This document shows, piece after piece, positions 2,563 to 21,751 of a stretch of DNA of 63,663 bases; positions within the stretch are counted from its first letter, which is position 1; each line of letters opens with the position of its first letter. The translations under genes and the position numbers were made by a program. This stretch comes from Candidatus Omnitrophota bacterium (GTDB lineage: Bacteria; Omnitrophota; Gorgyraeia; Gygaellales; Profunditerraquicolaceae), in contig JBFZAN010000031.1 of the NCBI GenBank assembly GCA_041309005.1, forward strand, positions 1-63,663, read 5' to 3'. Under the pieces are notes generated by a model. The model did not search any database. It was given only the letters and a program-made list of their open reading frames with translations, and had not been told where the DNA came from.

Positions 2563-5500
2563 ATGGTGAATCTGCTCAGAGGGCAGTTGGACTACATTTT
2601 TTTCTTCTACGGCCTGGCATTTCTGGTCCTGGCAACCGTTTGTTTCTCCCTGGACAGGACGAAAATGCACAGGATACCCTGGTTGTGGTTGGGGATGTTC
2701 GGCCTCGTGCATGGCCTGCAGGAATGGCTTGACCTCGCCTGTTTTGTGTGGGCATCGAATAAAGTTATCCCGGTCATCCGCGCGGTCGCCCTGGTGATAT
2801 CTTACCTGTTTCTTTTTGAATTCGCCAGGAGAGGCTTCAAGCTTATATATAACCGCAGGCCCGGAGTCTGGATTTACATACCGTTCTTGTTGCTGATCGC
2901 CTTTTTTAACGGCCACAGCCTCGAAAGCCTCAATGTGGTCACTCGCTATGCGCTCGCGCTCCCTTCCGGCGTCAGCGCCTTCTGGATAATCTATAAGTTT
3001 TTCAAGGCCGAAACCCATCCCCGTCTGCGCCGGTTGCTTTTGGTCTTAAGCCTTTCACTGGGGTTGTACTCCGTATTAGCCGGCTTGATCGTCCCCGAGG
3101 CAGCATTTCCTCCCGCATGCTGGATCAATTATAATTCTTTCCTGAAGATATTCGGGTTCCCCGTACAGTTTTTAAGGGGAATCTCGGCGATAGTATGCGC
3201 GATGGCTATCTGGGCTTATTCGGAAGAGTACCGGCTGTTTATTTCCAAAGAGCAGCGGTATCCTGCGCGTTTACAGTTATCCACCTGGCTAATGTTCATA
3301 CTCATCGCGTTGATCGGATGCGGCTGGGTGCTGGTGAATTATTTAGGCGCGCAGTCTAAAGACCGGCTTATTACCGATACCAGGATAGACGTCTCTGATC
3401 TTTCTCATACTTTGCTTGCCGAGCTGACCAAGATCGAACAGGCGGCGATGACCATAAGCGGCTCTCCCTGGATAGCGCCGGCTTTGGTTACCGCAGACCT
3501 TCAGAACATAAGAAACGCCAATGCCGTGCTCACGCGGTACAGGCGTTCTCTGGGCATGTCGGAATGTTTCCTGCTTGATCTTAAAGGTACCGCGATAGCG
3601 TCTTCCAACTGGAATACCCCGGATTCATTCATAGGGGCTTCATTCGGCAGATTGGCATATTTTAAGCAATCGCTTAAAGGGGAATTGGGGAGTTATTTCG
3701 GCTTTGATCCTGTTTCCCGGGAACGCTGCTATTACTCCAGCTTCCCCGTGCGCAATGAAGAAGATATGATCATCGGCGTGGTGGCCATGAAAAGAAGCAT
3801 AGAGATACTTGAAGAAGAGTTCAGGTCGCAGTCGCGTTGTTTCCTGGCCGATCCTTTCGGCATCATATTTTTATCCAGCGACAGGGAATACATTTTCCAC
3901 AGTATCTGGCCGGTGAATAAGGCGTTAGAGCGGCGAATCGTGGATTCCGGCCAGTTCGGCGGGACGCCGTTCGCGGCGCTTTTATCCCGGGAAGTTCTCG
4001 ACGGCGACCGCATCGCTTTTCAGAAAAGCGATTTTTTCGTAATACGCGCGCCCATCGGCCGGGAAGGCTGGTCTATGGTGCGTTTTGTCTCGACAGGGCC
4101 GATCCTCCAGTACCGTTTATACGGCATTTCCCTCATTTTATTCCTTTCCATCATGGTGATGGTTCTGTTCGTCGCCGTCAAGCAGAGGGAGAACCTGCTG
4201 GCGCTTATTTCCACGGTCAATACGCAGTTAAAGACCGTGCTGGATGCGGCGACTCATGTCTCCATCATCGCCACCGAACTCCACGGTCTGATCTCGGTAT
4301 TCAATACGGGCGCCGAAAGGATGCTGGGGTATCCCGCAGAGGAGATGGTCGAGATGCATACCCCCGAGATCCTGCATCTTGAGTCCGAGCTCATCGCCTA
4401 CGGCAAGCGCTTAAGCGAGGAGCTTCATCATCCCGTTGCGGGGTTTGACGTGCTGGTCGCGCATGCCAGAGAAGGCCGCTATGACGAAAAAGAATGGACC
4501 TATGTGCGCAGGGACGGCCGTAAGATCACCGTAAGCCTCTCCGTCACTGCGCAGCGCGATGCCAAAGGCGAACTTATCGGGTTCCTGTTTATCGCCACGG
4601 ACATCACCGAGCGCAAGAAAATAGAAGAGGCGCTGCGTTACAGCGACGAGAGGTTCAAGCAGGTGGCGGAGAGCGCGGGCGAATGGATTTGGGAAGTCGA
4701 CAGGTTCGGGCTGTACACCTATTCAAGCCCCGTGATAAAAAACATCCTTGGTTTCGAGGCGCAAGAGATCGTCGGCAAGAAATATTTTTATGACTTTGTC
4801 CCCCTGGATGAAAAAGAAGCGTTACGCAAAGAAATGCGCGATATCTTCTCGAAAAGGGAGCCCTTTACAAAGCTGGCTCACCCGCATCTGCACAGAAATG
4901 GGGACCAGGTGATCATGGAGTCTACCGGCATACCGTTGCTGGATGAAGAAGGGATCCTCCTGGGATACAGGGGCGTTGATACCGATATCACCGAGCGTAA
5001 GCGCGCGGAAGAAGCGCTGGCGCGCCAGGCGCAGGAGCTGGCGCGTTCCAATACCGAATTGGAGCGTTTTGCCTATGTAGCCTCCCACGACCTGCAGGAG
5101 CCGCTGCGCATGGTGTCCAGTTATGTGCAGCTTTTGGAAAAGCGTTACAAAGGAAAGCTGGATGCCGACGCCGATGATTTTATCGCCTACGCGGTAGACG
5201 GTGTAAACTGGATGCAGACGCTTATCAACGGCCTCCTCGCCTATTCGCGCGTGGGTACTCAGGGCAAGAAATTTGAGGCTACGGACTTAAACAGCGTCAT
5301 TATCAGGGTCCTTATGAATCTCAGGATCGCCATAGAAGAGACGGGCGCGGTAGTGACGCGCGATCCCCTGCCCACCCTTGCGGCCGACGGCTCACAGCTG
5401 GAACGCTTGTTCCAGAACCTTATCGGCAATGCCATAAAGTTCCATGGCGACAGTCCGCCTGAAGTCCATGTTTCGGCGGAGCAGAAGGCCGATGAGTGGC

Positions 5501-5727
5501 TTTTTTCAGTGCAGGACAACGGTATCGGCATAGACGAACAGTATATCGGCAAAGTGTTCGATATTTTCCAGCGCCTGCATTCCAGGAAGGATTACCCGGG
5601 CACCGGCATCGGCCTTGCGGTGTGTAAAAAGATCGTTGAACGCCACGGGGGGCGCATCTGGGTCAAATCACAGCCCGGCAAGGGCTCTATATTTTATTTT
5701 ACTATCCCCTTATCGGATATTAAGTAA
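2563..5727 (+). CDS. Multi-sensor histidine kinase: polytopic membrane domain + dCache-like domain + 2 PAS + HisKA + HATPase
   Basis: About 9 hydrophobic segments; DctB-like GTAIASSNW..SFIG...YF; two PAS/PAC repeats ending DITERK; H-box ASHDLQEPLR; N-box NLIGNAIKF; DNGIGI; GTGIGLAVCKKIVERHGG. Confidence 0.93.
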   Translation: MVNLLRGQLDYIFFFYGLAFLVLATVCFSLDRTKMHRIPWLWLGMFGLVHGLQEWLDLACFVWASNKVIPVIRAVALVISYLFLFEFARRGFKLIYNRRPGVWIYIPFLLLIAFFNGHSLESLNVVTRYALALPSGVSAFWIIYKFFKAETHPRLRRLLLVLSLSLGLYSVLAGLIVPEAAFPPACWINYNSFLKIFGFPVQFLRGISAIVCAMAIWAYSEEYRLFISKEQRYPARLQLSTWLMFILIALIGCGWVLVNYLGAQSKDRLITDTRIDVSDLSHTLLAELTKIEQAAMTISGSPWIAPALVTADLQNIRNANAVLTRYRRSLGMSECFLLDLKGTAIASSNWNTPDSFIGASFGRLAYFKQSLKGELGSYFGFDPVSRERCYYSSFPVRNEEDMIIGVVAMKRSIEILEEEFRSQSRCFLADPFGIIFLSSDREYIFHSIWPVNKALERRIVDSGQFGGTPFAALLSREVLDGDRIAFQKSDFFVIRAPIGREGWSMVRFVSTGPILQYRLYGISLILFLSIMVMVLFVAVKQRENLLALISTVNTQLKTVLDAATHVSIIATELHGLISVFNTGAERMLGYPAEEMVEMHTPEILHLESELIAYGKRLSEELHHPVAGFDVLVAHAREGRYDEKEWTYVRRDGRKITVSLSVTAQRDAKGELIGFLFIATDITERKKIEEALRYSDERFKQVAESAGEWIWEVDRFGLYTYSSPVIKNILGFEAQEIVGKKYFYDFVPLDEKEALRKEMRDIFSKREPFTKLAHPHLHRNGDQVIMESTGIPLLDEEGILLGYRGVDTDITERKRAEEALARQAQELARSNTELERFAYVASHDLQEPLRMVSSYVQLLEKRYKGKLDADADDFIAYAVDGVNWMQTLINGLLAYSRVGTQGKKFEATDLNSVIIRVLMNLRIAIEETGAVVTRDPLPTLAADGSQLERLFQNLIGNAIKFHGDSPPEVHVSAEQKADEWLFSVQDNGIGIDEQYIGKVFDIFQRLHSRKDYPGTGIGLAVCKKIVERHGGRIWVKSQPGKGSIFYFTIPLSDIK

Positions 5728-5751
5728 TGTGAGCGCACAAAAGAGCATGCT

Positions 5752-6639
5752 ATGACGAATAAGCTCATGAAGATCCTCCTGGTCGAGGATAACGTCGGCG
5801 ACGCGCGTCTTTTAAAAGAACATCTGACGGAATCAAGCGAGCTCCAGTTTGAATTGGCCCACGCCGAACGCCTCGGTTCGGCGCTGCAGCGGTTAAGCAA
5901 GGACCATTTCGACCTTATCCTGCTTGACCTTATGTTGCCCGACAGCCAGGGTTTTGATACGTTCATCAAAGTCCACGAGCACGCGCAGGATACCCCTATC
6001 GTGGTGCTTTCAGGCCTTTACTACGATGCGATCGCCTTAAAGGCGGTCAGCGAGGGCGCGCAGGATTATCTTGTGAAAGGCCAGGTCGACAGCGCTATGC
6101 TGGTGCGCTCTCTAAGGTATGCGATCGAGCGTAACCGCATGCAGATGGCGCTGCGCAGCCAGTCGCTTATCGATGACCTTACCGGCCTCTATAACCGAAG
6201 GGGTTTTATAACCCTGGCCGAACAGCAGCTCAAGCTTTCGCGAAGGAGCAAAAGAGGGTTTTTCCTTGTCTTTGTCGACCTCGACGGTTTAAAACAGATC
6301 AACGATTCGTTCGGCCACCTTCAAGGTGACGAGGCGCTGACCAGGACGGCTTTGATACTTAAGAAGACGTTCAGGGAGACGGATATCGCAGCGCGCATCG
6401 GCGGGGATGAGTTTATGGTCCTGGCGATCGACGCCGCCGGAGATAGCGCCGACATTATCACCCGGCGCCTTGAGGATTGCAAGAGTGAATTCAACAGGCA
6501 GCAAGACCGCCTCTATCGCCTCTCGCTGAGTTTTGGCATCGTGTATGTTGCTCCCGGGGACGCTTCTTCGCTGGAGCAGCTTATGGAAAAGTCCGATGAG
6601 GAATTGTATAAACATAAACGCAGTAAAAAGGAGATCTAA
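5752..6639 (+). CDS. Response regulator diguanylate cyclase (REC-GGDEF)
   Basis: REC with EDN...LLDLMLPD...K; DDLTGLYNRRGF, DLDGLKQINDSFGHLQGD, intact RIGGDEF with an RETD inhibitory site 5 residues upstream. Confidence 0.95.
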   Translation: MTNKLMKILLVEDNVGDARLLKEHLTESSELQFELAHAERLGSALQRLSKDHFDLILLDLMLPDSQGFDTFIKVHEHAQDTPIVVLSGLYYDAIALKAVSEGAQDYLVKGQVDSAMLVRSLRYAIERNRMQMALRSQSLIDDLTGLYNRRGFITLAEQQLKLSRRSKRGFFLVFVDLDGLKQINDSFGHLQGDEALTRTALILKKTFRETDIAARIGGDEFMVLAIDAAGDSADIITRRLEDCKSEFNRQQDRLYRLSLSFGIVYVAPGDASSLEQLMEKSDEELYKHKRSKKEI

Positions 6640-6648
6640 CCTAAAGAG

Positions 6649-8079
6649 ATGACTCAGAAAAGAAAGAAAGTGCTGATGATCGAGGATAATCCCGGAGACG
6701 CCCGCCTGATGCAGGAGGCGTTGTCCGAGGCTAAAGACCTGTTATTCGACCTGGAATGGGCGGAGGATCTTGCGAAAGGCCTCCAGCGGGTCAGTGAAGG
6801 GAACTTGGACCTGATCCTTCTGGACTTATCCCTGCCGGATTCGCACGGCCTCGATACGTTCACCCGGGTCCAGTCTAAGGCGCAAGGTATTCCGGTAGTC
6901 GTGCTGACGGGCCTTTATGACGAGGCGGTTGCCATAAAAGCTGTCCACGAAGGCGCGCAGGACTATCTGGTGAAAGGCCAGGGCGGGACCGACCTGTTCC
7001 TGCGTTCCATGCGTTACGCCATAGAGCGCCAGAGGATAGAGGAAGAGCTCAGGAGAAGCAACGACCTTAACCAGTCTATCCTGAAGGCGCTGCCGTTCGG
7101 TATGGAGATCGTTGATGAAAAGGGCAATATCCTGTATTTGAGCGAAAGGTTCGAATCCATTTTCGGCAAGGAAGCGATAGGAAAGAAATGCTGGCTGGTG
7201 TACAGGGATGATAAAATGCAGTGTTATGACTGCGCGCTTAAGTCCGAGATCAGGATCGGCGAGGTAAAAAGTATCGAGTCAGAAGGTATTATCGGAGGCA
7301 AGATCTTTCAGATCATGCACATCGGGATCATGTATCAGGGCAAGAAAGCGGTACTGGAGATCTTTAACGACATCACCGAGCGCAGGCGCATCGAGCAGAT
7401 GAAAAGCGATTTCGTGGCCCTGGTGTCGCACCAGCTTAAGACCCCCGTGGGAGAAATAACCGGATATCTCGATAACATGCTCAGCGGCCTTACGGGAGAA
7501 TTGACGTCAAAACAGAAGCAGTATCTGCGCGAGATGAAAGAGATAAACTCCAGGGCCTACCGCCTGATCTCCGACCTGCTCAATGTCTCCAGGATCGAGC
7601 GCGGCATAATCTCGGTCAATATGCAGCCGGTCAAACTTGCTGAAATAGCGCAGCTATCGGTAAAAGATTATATGCAGGATATAAACAGGAGAGGGCTTTT
7701 GTTCAATGTCAAAAACGACGACGGCGATGTGCTGGTCATGGCGGATAAGGACAAGATGGTTGAGGCGGTGAGTAATGTCGTCAATAACGCCGTCAGGTTC
7801 ACCGAAGAAGGCTCCATCGGGGTCACCCTGACGCATGATGAAGCCTTCGGCTATATCGAGGTCATGGATACCGGAAAAGGAATACTGCCGGAGCTTCTGG
7901 ATAAATTGTTCACCAGGGATCAGACGTTGAGCGGTTGTCCCCGGGCCGATGGCGGGGCGGGGCTTGGCCTTTATATCGCCAAAAGCTTCATGCAGTTGCA
8001 GAACGGCGATGTGTGGGTTGAATCAGGCGCTGATAAGGGGAGCAAATTTACTTTTAAAATTCCTTTAGTTGTGGTATAA
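6649..8079 (+). CDS. Hybrid REC-PAS-histidine kinase
   Basis: N-terminal REC paralogous to the previous gene; PAS ending DITERR; H-box SHQLKTP; NVVNNAVRFT; DTGKGI; GGAGLGLYIAK. Confidence 0.92.
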   Translation: MTQKRKKVLMIEDNPGDARLMQEALSEAKDLLFDLEWAEDLAKGLQRVSEGNLDLILLDLSLPDSHGLDTFTRVQSKAQGIPVVVLTGLYDEAVAIKAVHEGAQDYLVKGQGGTDLFLRSMRYAIERQRIEEELRRSNDLNQSILKALPFGMEIVDEKGNILYLSERFESIFGKEAIGKKCWLVYRDDKMQCYDCALKSEIRIGEVKSIESEGIIGGKIFQIMHIGIMYQGKKAVLEIFNDITERRRIEQMKSDFVALVSHQLKTPVGEITGYLDNMLSGLTGELTSKQKQYLREMKEINSRAYRLISDLLNVSRIERGIISVNMQPVKLAEIAQLSVKDYMQDINRRGLLFNVKNDDGDVLVMADKDKMVEAVSNVVNNAVRFTEEGSIGVTLTHDEAFGYIEVMDTGKGILPELLDKLFTRDQTLSGCPRADGGAGLGLYIAKSFMQLQNGDVWVESGADKGSKFTFKIPLVVV

Positions 8080-8095
8080 TCAGGACAAAAGGAGG
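8072..8095 (+). promoter_or_regulatory. Extended -10 internal promoter and strong RBS
   Basis: TGGTATAAT at 8072-8080 and AGGAGG at 8090-8095 before ATG 8101. Confidence 0.55.
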
Positions 8096-8100
8096 AACTC

Positions 8101-8697
8101 ATGGAAAAAAACAAAAATACTATTTTGATAGTTGATGATGAACCTGGTTTTCGCAGGATCTACCGGGATGTCCTTGAGAATGAGGGGTATGCGGTCCTGG
8201 AGGCCGATGACGGCGAAAAAGGGCTTACCGTAGCCAAGGCAGAAAAGCCGGCCCTTATACTCCTGGACATAGTCCTGCCGACGTTAAGCGGATTCGAGGT
8301 GTTAAAGAAGATCCGCGCAGAAGAGGCAATAAAATCCATGCCCGTCATTATCTTTTCGGTGCTGGGAGATAAAGAGACCATCAAAAAAGGGCTTGATCTG
8401 GGCGCGAACGACTATACGGTGAAAGGTTTTTACACCCCGAGGGAAATATTAAGCAAGATCCGCGACCTGCTGGTGAAATCATCCATCAAGAGCACACTCA
8501 ACACCTATACCGTTGTCATTCAGCCGACCAGGAGTGACGCGATGAAATTGCAGCAGGATATAGGGTTATCGAATGAGTTCGAGTGCACCCATTGTAAGAC
8601 CGCGATGGCGCTTGAACTTATACCGGATTATACGCGGGCGGACGGCCACTGGTTTGTTTCCCACTTTGTGTGTCCTGAGTGTAAACGGCCGTTTTAA
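8101..8697 (+). CDS. Response regulator with C-terminal four-Cys zinc-ribbon-like domain
   Basis: REC (ILIVDDE, LLDIVLP, DYTVK), then CTHC-x23-CPEC at the C-terminus; no HTH. Confidence 0.85.
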   Translation: MEKNKNTILIVDDEPGFRRIYRDVLENEGYAVLEADDGEKGLTVAKAEKPALILLDIVLPTLSGFEVLKKIRAEEAIKSMPVIIFSVLGDKETIKKGLDLGANDYTVKGFYTPREILSKIRDLLVKSSIKSTLNTYTVVIQPTRSDAMKLQQDIGLSNEFECTHCKTAMALELIPDYTRADGHWFVSHFVCPECKRPF

Positions 8698-8713
8698 GGG
8701 AGCGTCTAAGAAG

Positions 8714-9085
8714 ATGGTTGAGAGAAGAAGATATTACCGGCTGAAAGACGGAGTGAAGGTCGTATATAAGGTCTCCGGTAAGCTCGGTGAAATTAACTCG
8801 AGCGTCTTCGACGTGGGCGGCGGTGGTCTATGCCTGCCTATCTCCCAGAAAATAGGGCCGGGCACAAACCTGGAACTGAACCTGCTTTTGCCCGACAACA
8901 AAGATTCGTTCTTTGCCTTTGCCAGGGTTGTTTGGCAGGAGAAAGCGCCTCAGAAGGATAAGAACGGCCAGAATTATTACAATACGGGTATAGAGTTCTT
9001 AAAGGTCGACCTTAAAAACCGGCTGCAGATAATCCATTATGTGCACACCAGCCTTAAGGAAAGAGTGAAAGGCAGTAATCCGTAG
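8714..9085 (+). CDS. PilZ-domain protein
   Basis: ERRRYYR (RxxxR), DVGGGGL (variant of D/NxSxxG), ARVVW, YNTGIEF. Start reassigned to ATG 8714. Confidence 0.88.
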   Translation: MVERRRYYRLKDGVKVVYKVSGKLGEINSSVFDVGGGGLCLPISQKIGPGTNLELNLLLPDNKDSFFAFARVVWQEKAPQKDKNGQNYYNTGIEFLKVDLKNRLQIIHYVHTSLKERVKGSNP

Positions 9086-12303: not shown

Positions 12304-13998
12304 ATGAAGACCGATATCGAGATAGTCCGGAACGCAAAAATCAGGCCGATTGGCCATGTCGCGGCAAAATTAAAATTAAACAAAAAATACCTTATACCCC
12401 ACGGTAACTTTATTGCCAAGATAGACCCCGGGATCCTGCGCACGCTCGCCCATAAACCTAGGGGCAGGTATATATTGGTGAGCGCGATCACCCCTACCCC
12501 CCTGGGCGAAGGCAAGACCGTCACGACCATAGGACTTTCGATGGCGTTGAACCGTCTGGGGAAACGTTCCTCCTGCTGCATCAGGCAGCCTTCTTTAGGG
12601 CCTGTGTTCGGCATCAAGGGCGGGGCTGCCGGAGGAGGGTATTCGCAGGTGCTGCCGATGGAGGATTTCAATCTCCATTTTTCGGGGGATACCCACGCGG
12701 TGAGTGCAGCGCACAATCTGGCAGCGGCATTCCTGGATAATTCGGTCTTTAAGGGTAACCGCCTGGGCATTAACCCCGCGACCATGGTCTGGCGCAGGGT
12801 CATCGATATCAATGACCGTTCGTTAAGGAATATAAAGATAGGCCTCGCGCCTGAAGAGGACAAATTCGTCCAGGAATCGGGCTTCGATATTACCGCTTCT
12901 TCGGAGATCATGGCAGCGCTCGCCTTAAGCGGGGATATCTTTGATTTGAGAAAACGTCTGGGCAGGATCGTGCTGGCGTACACCTTCGACAACAAGCCGG
13001 TCACCTGCGACGACATAAAAGTTGCGGGCAGCATGGCTGCGCTTTTAAAGGAAGCCATAAAACCCAACCTGATCCAGACCATAGAAAATACCCCTTGTTT
13101 CGTGCACTGCGGGCCGTTCGGCAACATCGCTCACGGCAATAGCTCCATTCTGGCTGATGCGATCGCGCTGGCGTCATCGGAATATGTAGTTACCGAGGCC
13201 GGCTTTGGCGCCGATTGCGGCGCGGAAAAATTCTTCGATATTAAATGCCGGGTAAGCGGGTTCGTCCCCGACGCGGCGGTGATCGTATGTTCCGCGCGCG
13301 CCTTAAAAGCTCACAGCGGCAGGTTTAGAGTTGTCCCGGGAAAGCCGCTGGATAAGGCCTTGGGAAACGAGAACCTGCAGGCGCTGGAAGAAGGGATGCC
13401 TAACCTCGCCAAGCAGATAGAGAATATAAGGATTTTCGGCATTCCGGCAGTAGTGGCGGTCAACAGGTTTGATTCCGATACCGACCGCGAGATCGAACTT
13501 ATAAGAAACAAATCAATGGAATCGGGCGCCTATGGCTGCGAAGTAAGCAGTGTGTGGTCTTGCGGGTCGAAAGGGGGCCTTGCATTAGCCAGGTCGGTGA
13601 TAAAGGCAGCTTCCTGCGGGAAAGATTTTAAATACCTGTATTCGGTGAATATGCCGATCAAGGAGAAGATAGAAACGATCGCGGTCAGGATCTACGGCGC
13701 CAGGAACGTCGAATATTCAGAAGCTGCCGAACGCAAGATCGAACTGTGCGCGAAGCAGGGCTGGGACGCGCTGCCGATATGTATGTCCAAGACGCATTTG
13801 TCGTTGTCGCATGACCCCGGCCTCCTGGGAAGGCCGAAAGATTTTACCCTGCCGGTAAGAGATATCAGGGCGTTCGTGGGGGCGGGGTTCCTTTCTCCTT
13901 TGTGCGGCACAATAAATACCATGCCCGGCTTGCCGAAGCATCCGGCCGGCGAGAACATAGATATCGATAACAACGGTAATATCGTGGGGTTATTTTAA
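12304..13998 (+). CDS. fhs: Formate--tetrahydrofolate ligase
   Basis: ITPTPLGEGKT, LRQPS-like IRQPSLGPVFGIKGGAAGGGYSQV, HCGPFGNIAHGNSS, TEAGFGAD, TMPGLP. Confidence 0.97.
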   Translation: MKTDIEIVRNAKIRPIGHVAAKLKLNKKYLIPHGNFIAKIDPGILRTLAHKPRGRYILVSAITPTPLGEGKTVTTIGLSMALNRLGKRSSCCIRQPSLGPVFGIKGGAAGGGYSQVLPMEDFNLHFSGDTHAVSAAHNLAAAFLDNSVFKGNRLGINPATMVWRRVIDINDRSLRNIKIGLAPEEDKFVQESGFDITASSEIMAALALSGDIFDLRKRLGRIVLAYTFDNKPVTCDDIKVAGSMAALLKEAIKPNLIQTIENTPCFVHCGPFGNIAHGNSSILADAIALASSEYVVTEAGFGADCGAEKFFDIKCRVSGFVPDAAVIVCSARALKAHSGRFRVVPGKPLDKALGNENLQALEEGMPNLAKQIENIRIFGIPAVVAVNRFDSDTDREIELIRNKSMESGAYGCEVSSVWSCGSKGGLALARSVIKAASCGKDFKYLYSVNMPIKEKIETIAVRIYGARNVEYSEAAERKIELCAKQGWDALPICMSKTHLSLSHDPGLLGRPKDFTLPVRDIRAFVGAGFLSPLCGTINTMPGLPKHPAGENIDIDNNGNIVGLF

Positions 13999-14579
13999 TG
14001 TATCGGGACAAGACGCTTAAAAGATACCTGGATGATCTTGCGGCGAAGCGCGCCGTACCCGGCGGCGGCTCTGCGGCAGCGCTGTCAGCGGGGCTGGGGG
14101 TTTCCTTAATGGGCATGGTAATAAGGTTTACCTTGGGTAAACCGGCGTACGCGCCGTTTCAGAGCTTCCTCATAAGGACCCTTGCGCTTTCAGAGCGGCT
14201 TCGGCGCGAATGCTTAAGGCTGGTCGATCAGGATATCGCCGCGTACAAAAGCGGGAGCGCCGCGCGCTCACTCGCCGTACCTTTAAAGCTCGGGCAGTTG
14301 TGCCTGAAAGGCCTTCAGGCGTGCCCTTTACTTGCGGTCAGAAGCAATCCGCATCTGGCAAGCGATGTGGCGGTCGCCGCAACATTGCTTGAGGCTTCAT
14401 GCATAAGCAGCTGTTACACCGCCCGGATCAATTTACGTTCGGTGGGCCTTCGTGGCCGGGCCGCGGGTATAAGAAAGAGATTGGACCGCACCATCACCTT
14501 GTCAAAGAAGTTAAGGCGCGATACGGAGGTTAGTGTTGGCAAAATTATTGGAAGGAAAGATACTCGCCCAAAAGCTTAA
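13998..14579 (+). CDS. fchA: Cyclodeaminase/cyclohydrolase family protein (methenyl-THF cyclohydrolase FchA-like)
   Basis: YLDDLAAKRAVPGGGSAAAL, LVDQD, SNPHLASDVAVA, ARINL; lies between fhs and folD. Confidence 0.8.
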   Translation: MYRDKTLKRYLDDLAAKRAVPGGGSAAALSAGLGVSLMGMVIRFTLGKPAYAPFQSFLIRTLALSERLRRECLRLVDQDIAAYKSGSAARSLAVPLKLGQLCLKGLQACPLLAVRSNPHLASDVAVAATLLEASCISSCYTARINLRSVGLRGRAAGIRKRLDRTITLSKKLRRDTEVSVGKIIGRKDTRPKA

Positions 14580-15390
14580 ACAGGATCTCTCCAAAGAGAT
14601 CGTCGGGCTGCAGGCGAAACTCGCAAGGCCGCTGGCGCTGGAGAGTATCGTGGTAGGCGACCACGCTTCATCCAGCCTCTACTGCAACGCCCAGAAAAAG
14701 ACGGCTGAATCCCTGAACATAGAGTATCGTCTTCATACGTTAGGCGCCGCTGTCCCCGAGCAAGAACTTATCGGGCTGATAGAGAGGCTTAACCGGGATG
14801 AGACATCCGACGGCATCCTCGTGCAGATGCCGCTGCCCGGCCACATCGATTATAAAAGGGTGAGCCGTTTTATCGCCCCTCAAAAAGACGTGGAAGGCAT
14901 GCATCCTGCTAACATCGGCAAATTGCTGTTCGGTAAGGCGAAGATCGTCCCCTGTACGGCGGCAGCGGTCATGGCGCTGCTTAAAGAGACGGCTATTAAC
15001 CTTCGCGGTAAGTCCTGCGTTATCGTCGGCCACAGCGAGATAGTCGGCAAGCCTTTGAGCCTTCTTTTGCTGGATGAATTCGCGACAGTAAGCGTGTGCC
15101 ATATCGCTACCAGCGAAGCAGGACGCCTTAAAGACTACGTGCAGCAGGCCGAAGTGCTGGCGGTAGCCGTCGGCAAAGCGGGTATCGTTAAGGGAGAGTG
15201 GATAAAGAAAGACGCCGTGGTCATCGATGTAGGCATCAACAGGGTGGCGGACAAAACGGTAGGCGATGTCGAATTCGATGAAGCCGCAAAACGCGCTTCC
15301 TGGATCACGCCTGTGCCCGGGGGGGTAGGGCCATTGACCGTTGTGATGTTGATGAAGAACCTCGTCGAGGCGGTGAAGCAGAAGATATGA
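14533..15390 (+). CDS. folD: Bifunctional methylene-THF dehydrogenase/cyclohydrolase
   Basis: DGILVQMPLP, KDVEGMHP, PCTAAAV, VGHSEIVGKP, IDVGIN, GDVEF, ITPVPGGVGPLTV. Confidence 0.97.
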   Translation: MLAKLLEGKILAQKLKQDLSKEIVGLQAKLARPLALESIVVGDHASSSLYCNAQKKTAESLNIEYRLHTLGAAVPEQELIGLIERLNRDETSDGILVQMPLPGHIDYKRVSRFIAPQKDVEGMHPANIGKLLFGKAKIVPCTAAAVMALLKETAINLRGKSCVIVGHSEIVGKPLSLLLLDEFATVSVCHIATSEAGRLKDYVQQAEVLAVAVGKAGIVKGEWIKKDAVVIDVGINRVADKTVGDVEFDEAAKRASWITPVPGGVGPLTVVMLMKNLVEAVKQKI

Positions 15391-15716
15391 AGACCATACT
15401 GCTTCTTACGATATCAAACATATTCATGACCTTTGCCTGGTATGGGCATCTTAAATATAAGCATTCGCCGCTGTGGATCGCGATTCTGGTAAGCTGGCTG
15501 ATCGCTTCTGTCGAATACTGTTTTCAGGTCCCTGCTAACCGTATCGGCCATTACCGGTTTTCCGCGGCGCAATTGAAGACCATCCAGGAAGTCATTACCC
15601 TGGTTGTGTTCTCCGTTTTTTCCGTTTTCTATCTCAAGGAAGGCTTCAGATGGAATCATCTTGCGGGCTTCCTGATGATTATTTTGGCAGTGTTCTTTAT
15701 TTTTAGAAAATGGTAG
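15387..15716 (+). CDS. DMT-superfamily small membrane protein (DUF486 type)
   Basis: SNIFMTFAWYGHLK, EYCFQVPANRIG, QLKTIQEVITL; four hydrophobic helices in 109 aa. Confidence 0.88.
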   Translation: MKTILLLTISNIFMTFAWYGHLKYKHSPLWIAILVSWLIASVEYCFQVPANRIGHYRFSAAQLKTIQEVITLVVFSVFSVFYLKEGFRWNHLAGFLMIILAVFFIFRKW

Positions 15717-15730
15717 TGTATAATGTAGGC

Positions 15731-16570
15731 ATGAAGAGGAAGAATCCCATGCGTATCTTTTTTAGAAGCGTATTTCTGTTTCTTGCTGGCTCACTCGTTT
15801 TGTCTTCGGCCGCGTATGCCAGGGAGACCAGTTGGAATGAGCTCAATGACCAGGTTGCCTTGCTCTACCAGCAGGGAAAATACCAGGAGGCGATCAAGGT
15901 AGCCGAAGAGTCGTTGAGAGTGGCTGAGGATTCCTTCGGCGTGGACCATCCTAATGTGGCGCAGGCACTCAACAACCTGGCCCGGATCTATGACGCCCAG
16001 GGCAGATTCACGGAAGCAGAGACTTTTTACCGCAAGACCATCGGCGTGATAGAAAAAGCGCTCGGCCCGGAGCATCCAGACGTGGCGACGTCATTATACA
16101 ACCTGGCCGGATTTTATGATTCCCAGGGGAAACTCGCGCAGGCAGAGTCGTTGTACCTTCGGGCGCTTGACATATTCGAGCAGTCCCTCGGCCCGGAGCA
16201 CCCCGAGGTAGCGGCGGTATTGAATAATTTGGCCTTACTGTATAACTCTCAGGGCAGGTTCGATAAGGCGGAGCCGCTTTATCAGAGGACGCTTGCGATA
16301 ATGGAAAAGGCCTCAGGCCCCGATGACCCGAGCGTGGCGCAGACCTTAAACAATCTCGCGGTGCTCTACACCACGCAGGGCAAATATTTTGAAGCCGAAC
16401 CCCTCTATCAGCGGGCCCTCGCGATAATCGAAAAGACCTTCGGCGATGACCATCCCAATACGGCGATCGTGCTTAAGAATATGGCCGACTTTTACAGGAA
16501 GATCGCCAGGGAAAAAGACGCGGTGAGCTTCGAGGCGCGCGTCAAAGAGATTTACTCGAAAAACAAATGA
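15731..16570 (+). CDS. Secreted tetratricopeptide-repeat protein (42-aa kinesin-light-chain-type repeats)
   Basis: Signal-peptide-like N-terminus; five full and one partial 42-aa repeats LNNLA.LY..QG.Y.EAEPLY.RAL.I.EK.LGP.HP.VA. Start is uncertain (15710, 15731 or 15749). Confidence 0.88.
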   Translation: MKRKNPMRIFFRSVFLFLAGSLVLSSAAYARETSWNELNDQVALLYQQGKYQEAIKVAEESLRVAEDSFGVDHPNVAQALNNLARIYDAQGRFTEAETFYRKTIGVIEKALGPEHPDVATSLYNLAGFYDSQGKLAQAESLYLRALDIFEQSLGPEHPEVAAVLNNLALLYNSQGRFDKAEPLYQRTLAIMEKASGPDDPSVAQTLNNLAVLYTTQGKYFEAEPLYQRALAIIEKTFGDDHPNTAIVLKNMADFYRKIAREKDAVSFEARVKEIYSKNK

Positions 16571-17436
16571 CTTTCAAAGAAAAACTTGCGGCGGGGAAGT
16601 TCCTCGTCACTTCAGAGATAGGCCCTCCGAAAGGCATCGATACAAAACAGATCCTTGAAGAAGCAGAGGCTCTACGCGCCAGGGTGGACGCCATAAACGT
16701 AACCGACCTGCAGAGCTCGGTGATGCGCCTGGGTTCCCTTGCGGTATCAAGCCTGCTCGTGCAGCGGGGCCTTGAGCCGGTGTACCAGCTGACCTGCCGC
16801 GACAGGAACCGGCTGGCGCTGCAGTCAGACCTTTTGTCCGCGGCGGCATTAGGCATAGAAAACGTACTTATCCTTACCGGAGACCACCCTGTGCTGGGCG
16901 ACCATCCCGAGGCAAAGCCGGTATATGACCTTGATTCCGTGCAGCTTTTGCAGGTGGTAAAGTCGCTTGAGAAAGGCTTCGATATGAAAGGCAATAAGCT
17001 CGAGGGCGGCGCTCCGAAGTTCTGCGCCGGCGCGGCGGTGAATCCCGGCGCGGACCCGATAGAGCCGCAGATCATAAAAATGGAAAAGAAGGCCGAAGCG
17101 GGAGCGCAGTTCTTCCAGACGCAGGCAGTCTACGACATCAAGGTTTTCGAACATTTTTTATCCAAAGTACGCCATTTGAAGATACCCATATTGGCGGGCA
17201 TCGTGTTATTGAAGTCGGGGAACATGGCAAGGTACATGAATAAGAACGTCGCAGGCGTATCCGTGCCTGACGGTCTGATCAAGGAAATGGATGAGGCAAA
17301 AGACAAGCCTGCGAAATCGATCGAGATCGCCAGGCGGCTCATTCTCGAGCTAAAACCCATGTGTCAGGGCATACATATCATGCCTATCGGCTGGAACAGG
17401 CTTGTGGCCGAAATCCTTACGGCCTCCGGTTTATAA
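16567..17436 (+). CDS. metF: Methylenetetrahydrofolate reductase
   Basis: EIGPPKG, INVTD, TCRDRNRLALQSDL, LTGDHP, GAQFFQTQAVYD, GIHIMP. Confidence 0.93.
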   Translation: MTFKEKLAAGKFLVTSEIGPPKGIDTKQILEEAEALRARVDAINVTDLQSSVMRLGSLAVSSLLVQRGLEPVYQLTCRDRNRLALQSDLLSAAALGIENVLILTGDHPVLGDHPEAKPVYDLDSVQLLQVVKSLEKGFDMKGNKLEGGAPKFCAGAAVNPGADPIEPQIIKMEKKAEAGAQFFQTQAVYDIKVFEHFLSKVRHLKIPILAGIVLLKSGNMARYMNKNVAGVSVPDGLIKEMDEAKDKPAKSIEIARRLILELKPMCQGIHIMPIGWNRLVAEILTASGL

Positions 17437-17439
17437 GAT

Positions 17440-18330
17440 ATGGCAAGAATAGTCATTATCGGCGCTTCCATCGCAGGGCATACGGTCGCGCTCAAAATTA
17501 AAGAATCCTGCGCCGGTTCCAGCGTCACGCTTTTGACCGAGGAAAGCTACCCTCTCTATGACAGGAGGATGCTTACCGGGGTGCTGGCGGGTGAGAGAAA
17601 AGATAAAGAGGTGTTCCTGTTCGACAAAGACCTCTACGCCCGGAAGGCAATCGAATTCAAAAGCGAAAGCAGGGTAATTTCACTGAACCGGGATAAAAAG
17701 ATCCTTTCCTTGAAGGATAAACCGGCTGTCCCGTATGATTTCCTGGTGATCTGTACCGGAAGAAAATTCAGCCCGCCCCAGATACCAGGCATAAAAAAGA
17801 GCGGCGTATTCGGTTTCAGTTCTTTGGAAGACCTGAAGCAACTGAAGGCTTTCCCCGCGGGCGATACGGTCGCCATCTCCGGCTCAGGCGTTTGGGCCAG
17901 GAAGGTCGCCGCGGTATTCGCTTCCAAGGGGAAAGAGGTAAAGCTTTTGACAGGTGCCCCCGAAGCTCAAGAGGCGCCTGTCGTTCCAGCCGAAGGAAGA
18001 ATAGAGGCCATTCCCAGCAGCATCGTTGAGATAATAGGCGAATCAGAAATACAGGCGGTGAGGCTTAAGGAGGGCAAGATAGTCGGGACGACTATAGCGG
18101 TATTCATGGACGAATATAAAGGCGGTATAGAGTTCCTGAAACACTCCGGCATCGAAGTCCGCGGGGATTCTGTCCTGGTAGACGAGCGCATGCGTGCCGG
18201 TTGCGACCAGATCCTTGCCTGCGGCGCGGTATGCGCGCTAAAGGAAGGGCCTGCGGAAATGAAGTCCTGGGAAGAAACAATTGAGGAGGGCCTGCGAGCG
18301 GCCGATACCCTTCTTACGCTTGCGGGTTAA
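17440..18330 (+). CDS. NAD(P)/FAD-dependent oxidoreductase family protein, degenerate
   Basis: First Rossmann motif IVIIGASIAG, YDFLVICTG, PQIPGI; the second dinucleotide motif is eroded (ISGSGVWA) and the AxGD motif reads ACGA. Confidence 0.7.
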   Translation: MARIVIIGASIAGHTVALKIKESCAGSSVTLLTEESYPLYDRRMLTGVLAGERKDKEVFLFDKDLYARKAIEFKSESRVISLNRDKKILSLKDKPAVPYDFLVICTGRKFSPPQIPGIKKSGVFGFSSLEDLKQLKAFPAGDTVAISGSGVWARKVAAVFASKGKEVKLLTGAPEAQEAPVVPAEGRIEAIPSSIVEIIGESEIQAVRLKEGKIVGTTIAVFMDEYKGGIEFLKHSGIEVRGDSVLVDERMRAGCDQILACGAVCALKEGPAEMKSWEETIEEGLRAADTLLTLAG

Positions 18331-18341
18331 AGAGATTTTAC

Positions 18342-18370
18342 TTGACTTTCAATATAATTCTGTATAATAT
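18342..18370 (+). promoter_or_regulatory. Putative sigma70 promoter
   Basis: TTGACT (18342-18347) with TATAAT at 18363-18368 (15-nt spacer) or TAATAT at 18365-18370 (17-nt spacer), in an AT-rich intergenic region. Confidence 0.55.
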
Positions 18371-18384
18371 GATAGCAGATTACG

Positions 18385-19152
18385 ATGCTCACCTTAATTA
18401 ATAAATATATCCCCTTAAAAACACTGCTGTTATCGCTCATATCAGGGGCTATTTTTGCTTCTTGCGGCTTTGCGCAGGAGACGTCAAAATACTCCGGCCC
18501 CAATTATGAAGCGCAGGACCTTTCTTTGCTGCAGCAGCAGGCGAGGCTTTACCGCAGCCAGGGGCTCCAGTTGCAGAGCATGGGAAATCTGGACCAGGCG
18601 TTAAGTCTCTATCAAAAGGCGGCGGAACTCGACCCATCGTACGCGCTTGTCTTCAACGATATCGGGATCGTGTATGAGGCAAAAGGAGAAACCGATAAGG
18701 CGGAAGCCAATTATTTAAAGGCGATCTCTGTAGACCCTAACTTCCTGAGCGTCTACTCCAACCTCGGGTCGCTGTACGAAACAAAACGGGACCTTGAGAA
18801 AGCCGCGTATTACTGGGACAAGAGGGCGCGGCTTGGCCTGCCGGATGACCCCTGGACAAAGAAGGCAAAGAAGCATGTGCAGGGTTTAGCCATGGCGATA
18901 GGCGGCCCGAACGCAGCCAGTGAATTCGAACTTATCGATCTGATGAGAGAAGTGGCCTCACGCAAGTCCCGCCTGCAGGAAAGCGATAAGGCGCTGGCAA
19001 AGTCATACTTGGCCAAAGCGCAGAAAAGTTACAAAAAGGACGATTACGCGACCGCGGTCAAATACGCGATCAGCGCCCAGCAATTAGATCCCGATAATCC
19101 CGACATAGAAACATTCGTGAACAAAATCAAGATAAGAGCGCTGACTAAGTAG
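18385..19152 (+). CDS. Exported tetratricopeptide-repeat protein
   Basis: Hydrophobic N-terminus; 34-aa TPRs (ALSLYQKAAELDPSYA.VFNDIGIVY; AEANYLKAISVDPNF.SVYSNLG) plus a C-terminal TPR. Confidence 0.85.
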   Translation: MLTLINKYIPLKTLLLSLISGAIFASCGFAQETSKYSGPNYEAQDLSLLQQQARLYRSQGLQLQSMGNLDQALSLYQKAAELDPSYALVFNDIGIVYEAKGETDKAEANYLKAISVDPNFLSVYSNLGSLYETKRDLEKAAYYWDKRARLGLPDDPWTKKAKKHVQGLAMAIGGPNAASEFELIDLMREVASRKSRLQESDKALAKSYLAKAQKSYKKDDYATAVKYAISAQQLDPDNPDIETFVNKIKIRALTK

Positions 19153-19210: not shown

Positions 19211-21751
19211 ATGAGCAATAAGCATTTATATTTGATCGACGCTACCGCGTTCTGTTATCGCGCTTTCTACGCGCTCAGCGGACTCGCCACGTCCTTCGGT
19301 CAGCCTACGAACGCAGTCTTCGGGTTCATCGTGATGCTTAATAAGGTCATGAAAGAGCACGCGCCTGAGCTCCTGGGGATTTGTTTCGACGTTTCGAGGG
19401 AGACCTTCAGGCAGAAGAAATTTGCGGAATATAAGATCAACCGGCCCCCTATGCCGGAGGGCTTATCCAGCCAGATACCGCTTATCAAGGAGGTCGTGAA
19501 GGCCTTCGGCATAGCGTTGTTCGAGCGGCAAGGGTACGAAGCCGACGATATCATCGCGACCCTCGCCCGCAAAGCTAAAGCAAAAGGCATCGCTACGACC
19601 ATCATAAGTTCCGACAAGGATATATTACAGCTGGTGGATGAGCGTACCTCGGTGTTCAGCCCCTACAAAGATGAAGGCGTCATGTATGACGAAAAGAAAG
19701 TGCACGAGCGTTTCGGGGTGAGCCCCTCCCGGATAAGCGACGTGATCGCGTTGATGGGCGACAGCGTGGACAACATACCGGGCATTCCCGGCGTGGGGGA
19801 AAAGACCGCCGTGGGGCTGATCAAGACCTTTGGCTCCGTGGATTCCTTATTGACCCAGGTCGAACGGATACCCCAGGAAAGAATAAGAACGGCGATACGC
19901 GAGAACGCCGATAAGATAAAGTTAAATAAAGAGCTGACGGTGCTGGATGAAGCGCTGGATTTAACGTTCGACGAGCGCGCATTGGAGGTCCCTGAGCCCG
20001 ACTATCAGGAATTATTCAGGATATACAAGCGCCTTGAATTCAAGGCGTTCTTAAAAGACCTTCCCGTCAAAGAAACCGGGCAGGATACCGTTAAGCCCAA
20101 GCTTTTAAGCGATGAGGCGATAAAAGGGCTCCTTAAGGAAGAAGGCGAATTGATCCTCTACGGGGATACCCTCAAGGATCTTACTTTTTTCGCGCACGCA
20201 ACCGCCTTTCAGGCGGACGGCATAGCTGCGGGCCTCAAAACAGCCTTGTCAAATCCCGCCTGCAGGAAAACAGGCTACGACTTAAAGAGGATGAAACTCG
20301 TCCTGGCAAAAGAAGATATCGCGCTGGAAGGCCTTGAATTCGACGCCATGATCGCAGCGTACCTGCTCAATCCTTCCAAGCCCGAGTATACCCTTAACGA
20401 CACGGCGTGGGATTTTCTGGGCACGCCTTTGCCGTCGGGGCAGCTTGAAGGGGCCAGGGCGGTCAGCGTCATTGCGCAGTTAGTACAAGCGCTTAAAGCG
20501 GCGCTTCAGGAAAAGTCCCTCGCCTCGCTTTTTACTGAAATCGAAATGCCACTGGTCGACGTGCTGGCGCATATGGAGATGACGGGGATAAAAGTAGACC
20601 CCGGCGTGCTTAAGAGGATCTCGGGTGAACTGGAAAAAAGGCTGATCGAACTGAATGAGGCTATCTATTCTTTAAGCGGGTGCCAGTTCAATATCAATTC
20701 CCCCAAGCAGCTTCGCGAGGTGCTATTTGAAAAATTGAAACTGCCCGTGGTGAAAAGGACCAAGACCGGCCCTTCTACCGACGAAGAAGTGTTAAGGAGC
20801 CTGGCGGCCAAGCACAAGCTTCCCGCCTTACTGCTTGAGTACCGCCAGCTGATGAAGTTAAAAACGACGTATGTGGATGCGCTGCCGAACCTGATAGACC
20901 CCGGGACCCAAAGGATCCACACGTCTTTTAACCAGACCGGTACTGAAACCGGCAGGCTCAGTTCCAGCAATCCTAACCTGCAGAATATCCCGATAAAGAC
21001 CGGCATCGGCAGGAGCATCAGGCGCTCGGTGGTTTCCTTCGAAAAAGGCACGTTTCTTCTCTCCTGCGATTATTCGCAGATAGAATTACGGATACTGGCC
21101 CATATTTCCAGAGACGCCCAGCTTATAGACGCGTTTAAAAAGGACGAGGATATACATAAGGCTACCGCCGCGTTGATCCACGGCGTCAAGGAAGGAGACG
21201 TTACCGAAGAGATGCGCACTCTCGCCAAGAGGGTCAATTTCGGCATCGTCTACGGCCTCACTTCGTTCGGCCTCGCCAGGGACCTTTCGATTTCGTTCGA
21301 AGAAGCCCAGGGGTTTATCGACGCCTATTTTGCCCGTTATCCCGGCGTAAAACAGTATATCGATACGCAGATCGCCTCCGCCCGCAAAGACGGGTTTGTC
21401 ACCACGATCCTGGGCAGGAGAAGATATGTCCCCGAGATCACTAATAAGAACCCGATGATACGCCAGCTCGCGGAAAGGCAGGCGGTAAATACTCCCATAC
21501 AGGGCTCGGCGAGCGACCTGATCAAATCAGCCATGGTCCAGATACACCGCGCGATAAAGGAAAAAGGCTTGCAAAGCGCCATGATACTGCAGATACACGA
21601 CGAGCTCCTGTTTGACGTGCCGGATGAAGAAGCGGCAGCATTTATTCCGCTGGTCAAAGATAAGATGGAAAACGTCCTGCGGCTTGAGGTGCCGGTAAAA
21701 GTGGATATGAAAAAAGGGAAGAACTGGGCGGAAATGGAGGAAATAAGATAA
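19211..21751 (+). CDS. polA: DNA polymerase I
   Basis: 5'-3' exonuclease (YLIDAT, GYEADDII, LMGDSVDNIPGIPGVGEKTA), a short degenerate 3'-5' exo region, and the polymerase motifs DYSQIELR, KRVNFGIVYG, LQIHDEL. Confidence 0.98.
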   Translation: MSNKHLYLIDATAFCYRAFYALSGLATSFGQPTNAVFGFIVMLNKVMKEHAPELLGICFDVSRETFRQKKFAEYKINRPPMPEGLSSQIPLIKEVVKAFGIALFERQGYEADDIIATLARKAKAKGIATTIISSDKDILQLVDERTSVFSPYKDEGVMYDEKKVHERFGVSPSRISDVIALMGDSVDNIPGIPGVGEKTAVGLIKTFGSVDSLLTQVERIPQERIRTAIRENADKIKLNKELTVLDEALDLTFDERALEVPEPDYQELFRIYKRLEFKAFLKDLPVKETGQDTVKPKLLSDEAIKGLLKEEGELILYGDTLKDLTFFAHATAFQADGIAAGLKTALSNPACRKTGYDLKRMKLVLAKEDIALEGLEFDAMIAAYLLNPSKPEYTLNDTAWDFLGTPLPSGQLEGARAVSVIAQLVQALKAALQEKSLASLFTEIEMPLVDVLAHMEMTGIKVDPGVLKRISGELEKRLIELNEAIYSLSGCQFNINSPKQLREVLFEKLKLPVVKRTKTGPSTDEEVLRSLAAKHKLPALLLEYRQLMKLKTTYVDALPNLIDPGTQRIHTSFNQTGTETGRLSSSNPNLQNIPIKTGIGRSIRRSVVSFEKGTFLLSCDYSQIELRILAHISRDAQLIDAFKKDEDIHKATAALIHGVKEGDVTEEMRTLAKRVNFGIVYGLTSFGLARDLSISFEEAQGFIDAYFARYPGVKQYIDTQIASARKDGFVTTILGRRRYVPEITNKNPMIRQLAERQAVNTPIQGSASDLIKSAMVQIHRAIKEKGLQSAMILQIHDELLFDVPDEEAAAFIPLVKDKMENVLRLEVPVKVDMKKGKNWAEMEEIR

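Follow-up and report, generated by a model that had tools for sequence, protein, structure and literature searches.

The flavoprotein gene directly downstream of metF in the window (the whole 63,663-nucleotide stretch of Candidatus Omnitrophota DNA analyzed here) is probably a cut-down survivor of a lost CODH gene block that has been kept by selection, rather than a new partner of MetF. A preliminary description had recorded metF and a 296-aa Pyr_redox frame side by side and proposed the latter as a possible alternative MTHFR partner. Both open reading frames are real, and their adjacency is conserved among relatives, where the short-form gene mostly lies 0 to 25 bp after metF. The evidence from gene order, motif loss, phylogeny, and selection makes it probable that the flavoprotein is no part of the MTHFR enzyme.

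Gene layout of the window locus

All genes of the locus lie on the + strand in the order fhs-fchA-folD-DMT6-TPR-metF-flavoprotein-TPR-polA:

12304..13998, +, fhs, formate-THF ligase (PF01268, 807 bits; PRK13505 above cut-off)
13998..14579, +, fchA-like methenyl-THF cyclohydrolase of the FTCD_C family (PF04961, 112 bits; NF045657 below cut-off)
14533..15390, +, folD (PF02882 and PF00763)
15387..15716, +, DMT_6 (DUF486) small membrane protein (PF04342), patchy and found in a minority of relatives' loci
15710..16570, +, TPR protein (TPR_12), an insertion 5′ of metF
16567..17436, +, metF, subunit of a MetV-dependent (probably type II) methylene-THF reductase, 289 aa (PF02219, 138 bits)
17440..18330, +, short degenerate FNOR, a 296-aa Pyr_redox_2 frame with an eroded NAD motif, the FAD Asp and C-terminal domain lost
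18331..18384, no strand, 54-bp gap at the position of acsB (about 2.2 kb) in relatives
18385..19152, +, conserved TPR gene that anchors the locus on its downstream side (in most relatives, acsB is followed by TPR-polA)
19211..21751, +, polA, downstream anchor (named from its translation)

The flavoprotein frame begins 3 nt after the metF stop, and no acsB remnant was found in the 54-bp gap. A TPR gene in the slot upstream of metF was seen elsewhere only in G019, L206, L219, and G018. Promoter and terminator scans of the window returned hits at chance level (7 versus 5.0 ± 2.1; 12 versus 8.9 ± 3.0), and the sigma70-like site TTGACT-17-TAATAT at 18342-18370, immediately 5′ of the TPR gene at 18385, belongs to a class of sites whose number is likewise at chance level. 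At 2563-9085 the window encodes a series of sensor kinases and response regulators together with a PilZ-like ORF, all identified by translation alone.

The flavoprotein occupies the FNOR slot of a CODH cluster

We compared the slot after metF across 61 genomes (Ca. Omnitrophota relatives, this genome included). In 24 of them metF was followed by (cooC)-cooS-cooF-FNOR-acsB, with an FNOR of about 420 aa (cooF was not called in G041), and in three by cooS and then the contig end. The short form alone was found in 31 genomes, all of which lacked cooS genome-wide; G059 had both forms, G038 a 400-aa form without cooS, and G057 no visible locus. Among the 31 short-only loci, acsB was a separate gene in 17 (seen from its start only in G002 and lying 3.4 kb away in G043) and fused in full to the flavoprotein in two. 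Seven more retained an approximately 110-residue fragment that has no FAD domain and is fused to AcsB, with metF alongside it normal, and the remaining five, this genome among them, had no acsB. As this genome is 93% complete, we give gene absences as "not found," which applies to cooS, cooF, cooC, acsB, acsC/D, and acsE; the contig is unbroken across the conserved positions of acsB and cooS-cooF, and neither is there.

CooS-CooF-FNOR units were described previously, FNOR standing for FAD-dependent NAD(P) oxidoreductase (COG1251), a protein without biochemical study at that time (PMC6344411). The window flavoprotein is an FNOR homolog in the same slot, between metF and acsB/TPR, and is, judged by its sequence, a degenerate variant of this CODH-linked family. 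The long relatives in cooS-cooF-FNOR-acsB have intact GxGxxG and GD motifs and a PF18267 domain, whereas the window genome is without cooS/cooF and its protein has an eroded NAD motif and has lost the FAD Asp and the C-terminal domain. The window locus is therefore likely to be the reduced end state of the Omnitrophota Wood-Ljungdahl cluster folD-metF-cooS-cooF-FNOR-acsB-TPR-polA. In the scenario we propose, cooS-cooF would have been lost from between metF and FNOR, which would account for the adjacency of metF and the flavoprotein gene, and acsB/C/D/E would also have gone from this genome.

Omnitrophota acetogenesis has been divided into basic, partial (a Wood-Ljungdahl pathway without AcsA and CooS/F), and complete tiers (Seymour et al. 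2023, PMC10066038), and our long, short-plus-acsB, and short-without-acsB loci match these tiers. The passages that describe them make no mention of a degenerate FNOR, its AcsB fusions, or a mosaic acsB, and the openly accessible literature that we searched yielded no paper on the short FNOR.

Intermediate states of two kinds were seen at L305 (G320), L308 (G318), L294 (G300), and L079 (G038), namely, cooF with an intact FNOR and acsB but no cooS at the locus, or an approximately 400-aa FNOR with GxGxxG and no adjacent cooS/cooF. Family f4 (L073, L074, L130, L133, L135, and L136) has a 365-aa BioD/DRTGG Pta-N-like gene between cooF and FNOR; its counterpart in this genome (G000:C66:15902-16990, 64% identical) lies in a trx-DRTGG-pta-ack run.

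Motif losses in the short form

The preliminary description correctly noted an intact FAD-binding start, an eroded NAD motif, and a shortened middle. We found the first to comprise G8, G13, E35, and G107 and the second to read GSGVWA versus GGGLIG in long relatives; the middle domain has a deletion of some 10 residues relative to the long form, placed behind its second strand. The larger loss was overlooked, namely, an approximately 110-residue C-terminal domain (PF18267, Rubredoxin_C) present only in the long form, together with an FAD-binding Asp. GSGVWA nominally fits GxGxxA, a pattern found in only 3 of 24 short homologs, and GxGxxG is present in 20/22 long versus 0/24 short proteins. The Asp in question belongs to the GD motif and is kept in 22/22 long versus 2/24 short proteins; it is lost in the window protein, and the short form has also lost the CRC/NRC motif near residue 42. 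On the other hand, G8, G13, E35, G107, and G262 are retained in 86 to 100% of short forms, and with the N-terminal FAD motifs mostly kept and the GD Asp lost, the short form may bind flavin.

The window protein is 31% identical to residues 1-306 of the long FNOR, and a domain search found no Fe-S domain in it. Its AF2 model (pLDDT 92.6, pTM 0.88) is a two-domain glutathione-reductase-type fold ending at helix 277-295. The earlier suggestion of a pseudo-enzyme fits a protein with neither a conserved NAD motif nor the C-terminal domain; once a protein of this family has shed its NAD site as well as its partner-docking domain, the electron path is missing at both ends. P113, G117, K120, G122, E197, G200, G212, and K213 were considered as a special surface and rejected, as the pattern largely recurs in ordinary paralogs; the residues conserved across degenerate forms are largely fold-typical and therefore mark no special binding surface.

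metV is unlinked, and MetF most likely belongs to an ordinary MetVF enzyme

The preliminary description reported no metV nearby. This is true of the whole contig, which has no PF12225 match, but a profile search of the genome identified a sole strong match on another contig (G000:C6:13022-13672, 216 aa, PF12225 116 bits). Its Cys pattern is intact, and the cysteines are conserved in 28 orthologs. The gene stands in the order pheT-metV-5-formyl-THF cyclo-ligase-like-rny-like (neighbors named from translations), with a 414-bp gap between pheT and metV. All 28 relatives of at least 90% completeness have metV, which adjoins metF only in G037, G046, G051, and G321. An unlinked metV is the rule in this order, so "metF without metV" read from one window misleads. 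The assignment of MetF to the MetV-dependent type was borne out, with orthologs 63 to 67% identical directly 3′ of metV in G037, G046, and G051. MetF orthologs are 63 to 80% identical across the order, the close relatives are mostly labeled Ca. Omnitrophota, and the genome holds a single metF.

Because an intact metV exists elsewhere in the genome, MetF most likely works in an ordinary MetVF enzyme, and we infer a type II MTHFR by a published scheme whose type II members come from C. ljungdahlii, T. kivui, and E. callanderi (PMC8760232). As in that type, there are MetF, a MetV with Fe-S cysteines, and Rnf, with RnfC2 and HdrCBA-MvhD not found; unlike it, metV is unlinked, and there is no ACS. 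In this 93% complete genome the only PF01512 match is the canonical 425-aa RnfC of the rnf operon, and MvhD (PF02662) and HdrB (PF02754) had no match. Types III (MetVF-RnfC2, A. woodii) and IV (MetVF-HdrCBA-MvhD, M. thermoacetica) also have a flavoprotein gene adjoining metF, but the input subunits of those types have an NADH site and Fe-S clusters, neither of which the window protein has. Another likeness is the lpdA gene beside metVF in clostridial Wood-Ljungdahl clusters, a Pyr_redox-type gene by metF for which an MTHFR-partner hypothesis also arose. LpdA is an intact enzyme, unlike the window flavoprotein; its role in MTHFR was judged highly unlikely, the purified MTHFR being MetVF alone (PMC8760232). 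MetH is present in the genome and is the likely consumer of the MetF product, methyl-THF, and as this genome has no ACS, the probable use is methionine synthesis, not acetogenesis.

Alternative explanations for the short protein

The short-form family is under purifying selection, and its window member is no pseudogene. By the Nei-Gojobori method, dN/dS was 0.12 to 0.21 in nine measurable close pairs of relatives, four of them from acsB-less loci, compared with 0.09 in one long-form pair and 0.06 to 0.12 for metF. This genome formed a measurable pair only with G014, whose value of 0.17 is near saturation; a metagenome scan for close relatives gave distant matches only. A neutrally decaying pseudogene would be consistent with the faster evolution of the short form (37% versus 59% mean pairwise identity for the long form) and with one frameshifted copy in G004. 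However, dN/dS did not exceed 0.21 in any measurable pair, frames are open across dozens of genera, and the window protein has a confident predicted fold, making such decay extremely improbable. The same selection bears on the idea that the short protein serves specifically to cap or activate the N-terminal domain of a CODH-less AcsB, in which case it would be no more than a lagging relic here, where acsB is gone. Arguing for it, acsB is next to the short gene, fused or close by, in 26 of 31 short-only loci, with full fusions in G011, G035, and G280 and fragment fusions in seven more, and AcsB residues 1-310 divide by cassette type. Yet physical linkage alone would yield the same trees, and in acsB-less loci the gene is intact at 42 to 48% identity without a stop and is under the purifying selection described above; it also persists in other families without acsB. 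We thus consider this partnership unlikely. For one naturally occurring fusion of the flavoprotein to AcsB(N), the AF2 model (pLDDT 85.7, pTM 0.60) gave no interface information.

The alternative closest to the preliminary description is an accessory subunit of MetVF besides MetV, a flavin-holding, NAD(P)H-independent shuttle, e.g., from ferredoxin or Rnf to MetV. Its appeal lies in the position of the gene just after metF in most short-form loci and its persistence after acsB loss, in the retained FAD-binding glycines and E35, in an RnfC2 or Hdr/Mvh input module not being found, and in the physiological donor of type II MTHFR being still an open question (PMC8760232). Nevertheless, no MetF clade is linked to the short form; the short/long label requires one change on the flavoprotein tree versus 12 on the MetF tree and seven on the polA tree. 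Every fusion is to AcsB and none to MetF or MetV, the fragment form is entirely without the FAD domain, and the partner-docking domain is gone. Moreover, occurrence is not confined to MetVF genomes. In seven other families, 15 genomes have a homolog immediately 3′ of folD without an intervening metF; the five of these that were tested had neither metV nor acsB and encoded a different MetF elsewhere. G017 retains the short gene, but of metF there is only a scrap, and metV had no match. GxGxxG is missing from 13/15 of the folD-adjacent homologs (the G202 sequence was left out of this comparison), and FAD motifs are gone from several as well; as the group forms its own branch, the losses look partly independent. 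A MetVF subunit is therefore very unlikely, and we give equally little credence to a still FAD-binding, repurposed FNOR that would shuttle electrons into MetV independently of NAD(P)H as the missing physiological donor link of type II MTHFR. With metV intact elsewhere, a flavoprotein tree that does not follow that of MetF, and a protein that persists where metF and metV are gone, the claim of an alternative MTHFR partner or new electron-donor subunit is not supported. A co-fold prediction of MetF, MetV, and the flavoprotein with alignments gave no usable answer (score 0.00) and carries no weight as evidence.

A putative role outside MetVF and AcsB

Under the preferred reading of a selected survivor of the CODH block, MetF would pair with the unlinked MetV and feed methyl-THF to MetH, and this MetVF would work without the flavoprotein; characterized type II MTHFRs are ferredoxin-reducible, and an Rnf complex is present in this genome. 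Hydride transfer from NAD(P)H to an Fe-S partner, presumably the ancestral activity, would be beyond the flavoprotein. Most likely it folds but is either non-catalytic or a weak binder of flavin, and its predicted binding or structural role would need neither MetVF nor AcsB. Our best guess, a tentative one, ties that role to the fchA-folD part of the operon because these are the only neighbors kept in every context seen. That an enzyme subunit should lose its cofactor motifs and yet, in several families, outlive CODH, ACS, and MetVF would suggest a second function, and the label "NirB / FAD oxidoreductase" on this gene overstates its activity.

AcsB is mosaic between cassette types

A tree of AcsB residues 1-310 splits cleanly by cassette (support 99), whereas that of residues 311-726 shows no such split (nine changes), and the 37 positions diagnostic of cassette type all fall within residues 5-285. 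In the same-genus genomes G226 (long) and G227 (short), FolD and MetF are 83% and 89% identical, while AcsB is 35 to 46% identical over its first 300 residues and 73 to 92% over the remainder; the same jump in identity recurs in three other long/short pairs, and the mosaic of G059 runs in reverse. Most short-cassette AcsBs keep all A-cluster cysteines. These alignments suggest that the short flavoprotein and the AcsB N-domain form an alternative cassette, a block from the metF stop to approximately AcsB residue 300 that would be exchanged by homologous recombination; shared relaxation after CODH loss would account less well for the shared derived AcsB residues. The mosaic acsB suggests that Omnitrophota can switch between CODH-coupled and CODH-free acetyl-CoA synthase through one cassette exchange, which bears on the spread of the partial Wood-Ljungdahl pathway.

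Several loci showed further AcsB peculiarities. L082 (G059:C33:18000-35000) has the short flavoprotein together with cooS-cooF-long FNOR-acsB, and the N-part of its AcsB is nearest to that of G024 in family f1 while the C-part falls with family f7, to which G059 belongs; G059 likely re-acquired a CODH cassette. At L080:7970-10033 and L146 (G046 and G037), AcsB is very divergent, with an altered Cys-Gly-Cys nickel motif and dN/dS of 0.23. The acsB frame after the short flavoprotein is only 425 aa at L248 (G132), L209, and L241, and in the same-genus pair G153/G262, AcsB is only 64% identical versus 86 to 93% for its neighbors. Finally, the 37 fixed differences between CODH-linked and CODH-less AcsB include two close to the conserved Phe222, A219P and A230W (G034 numbering), in a region that we take to line the CO tunnel/alcove.
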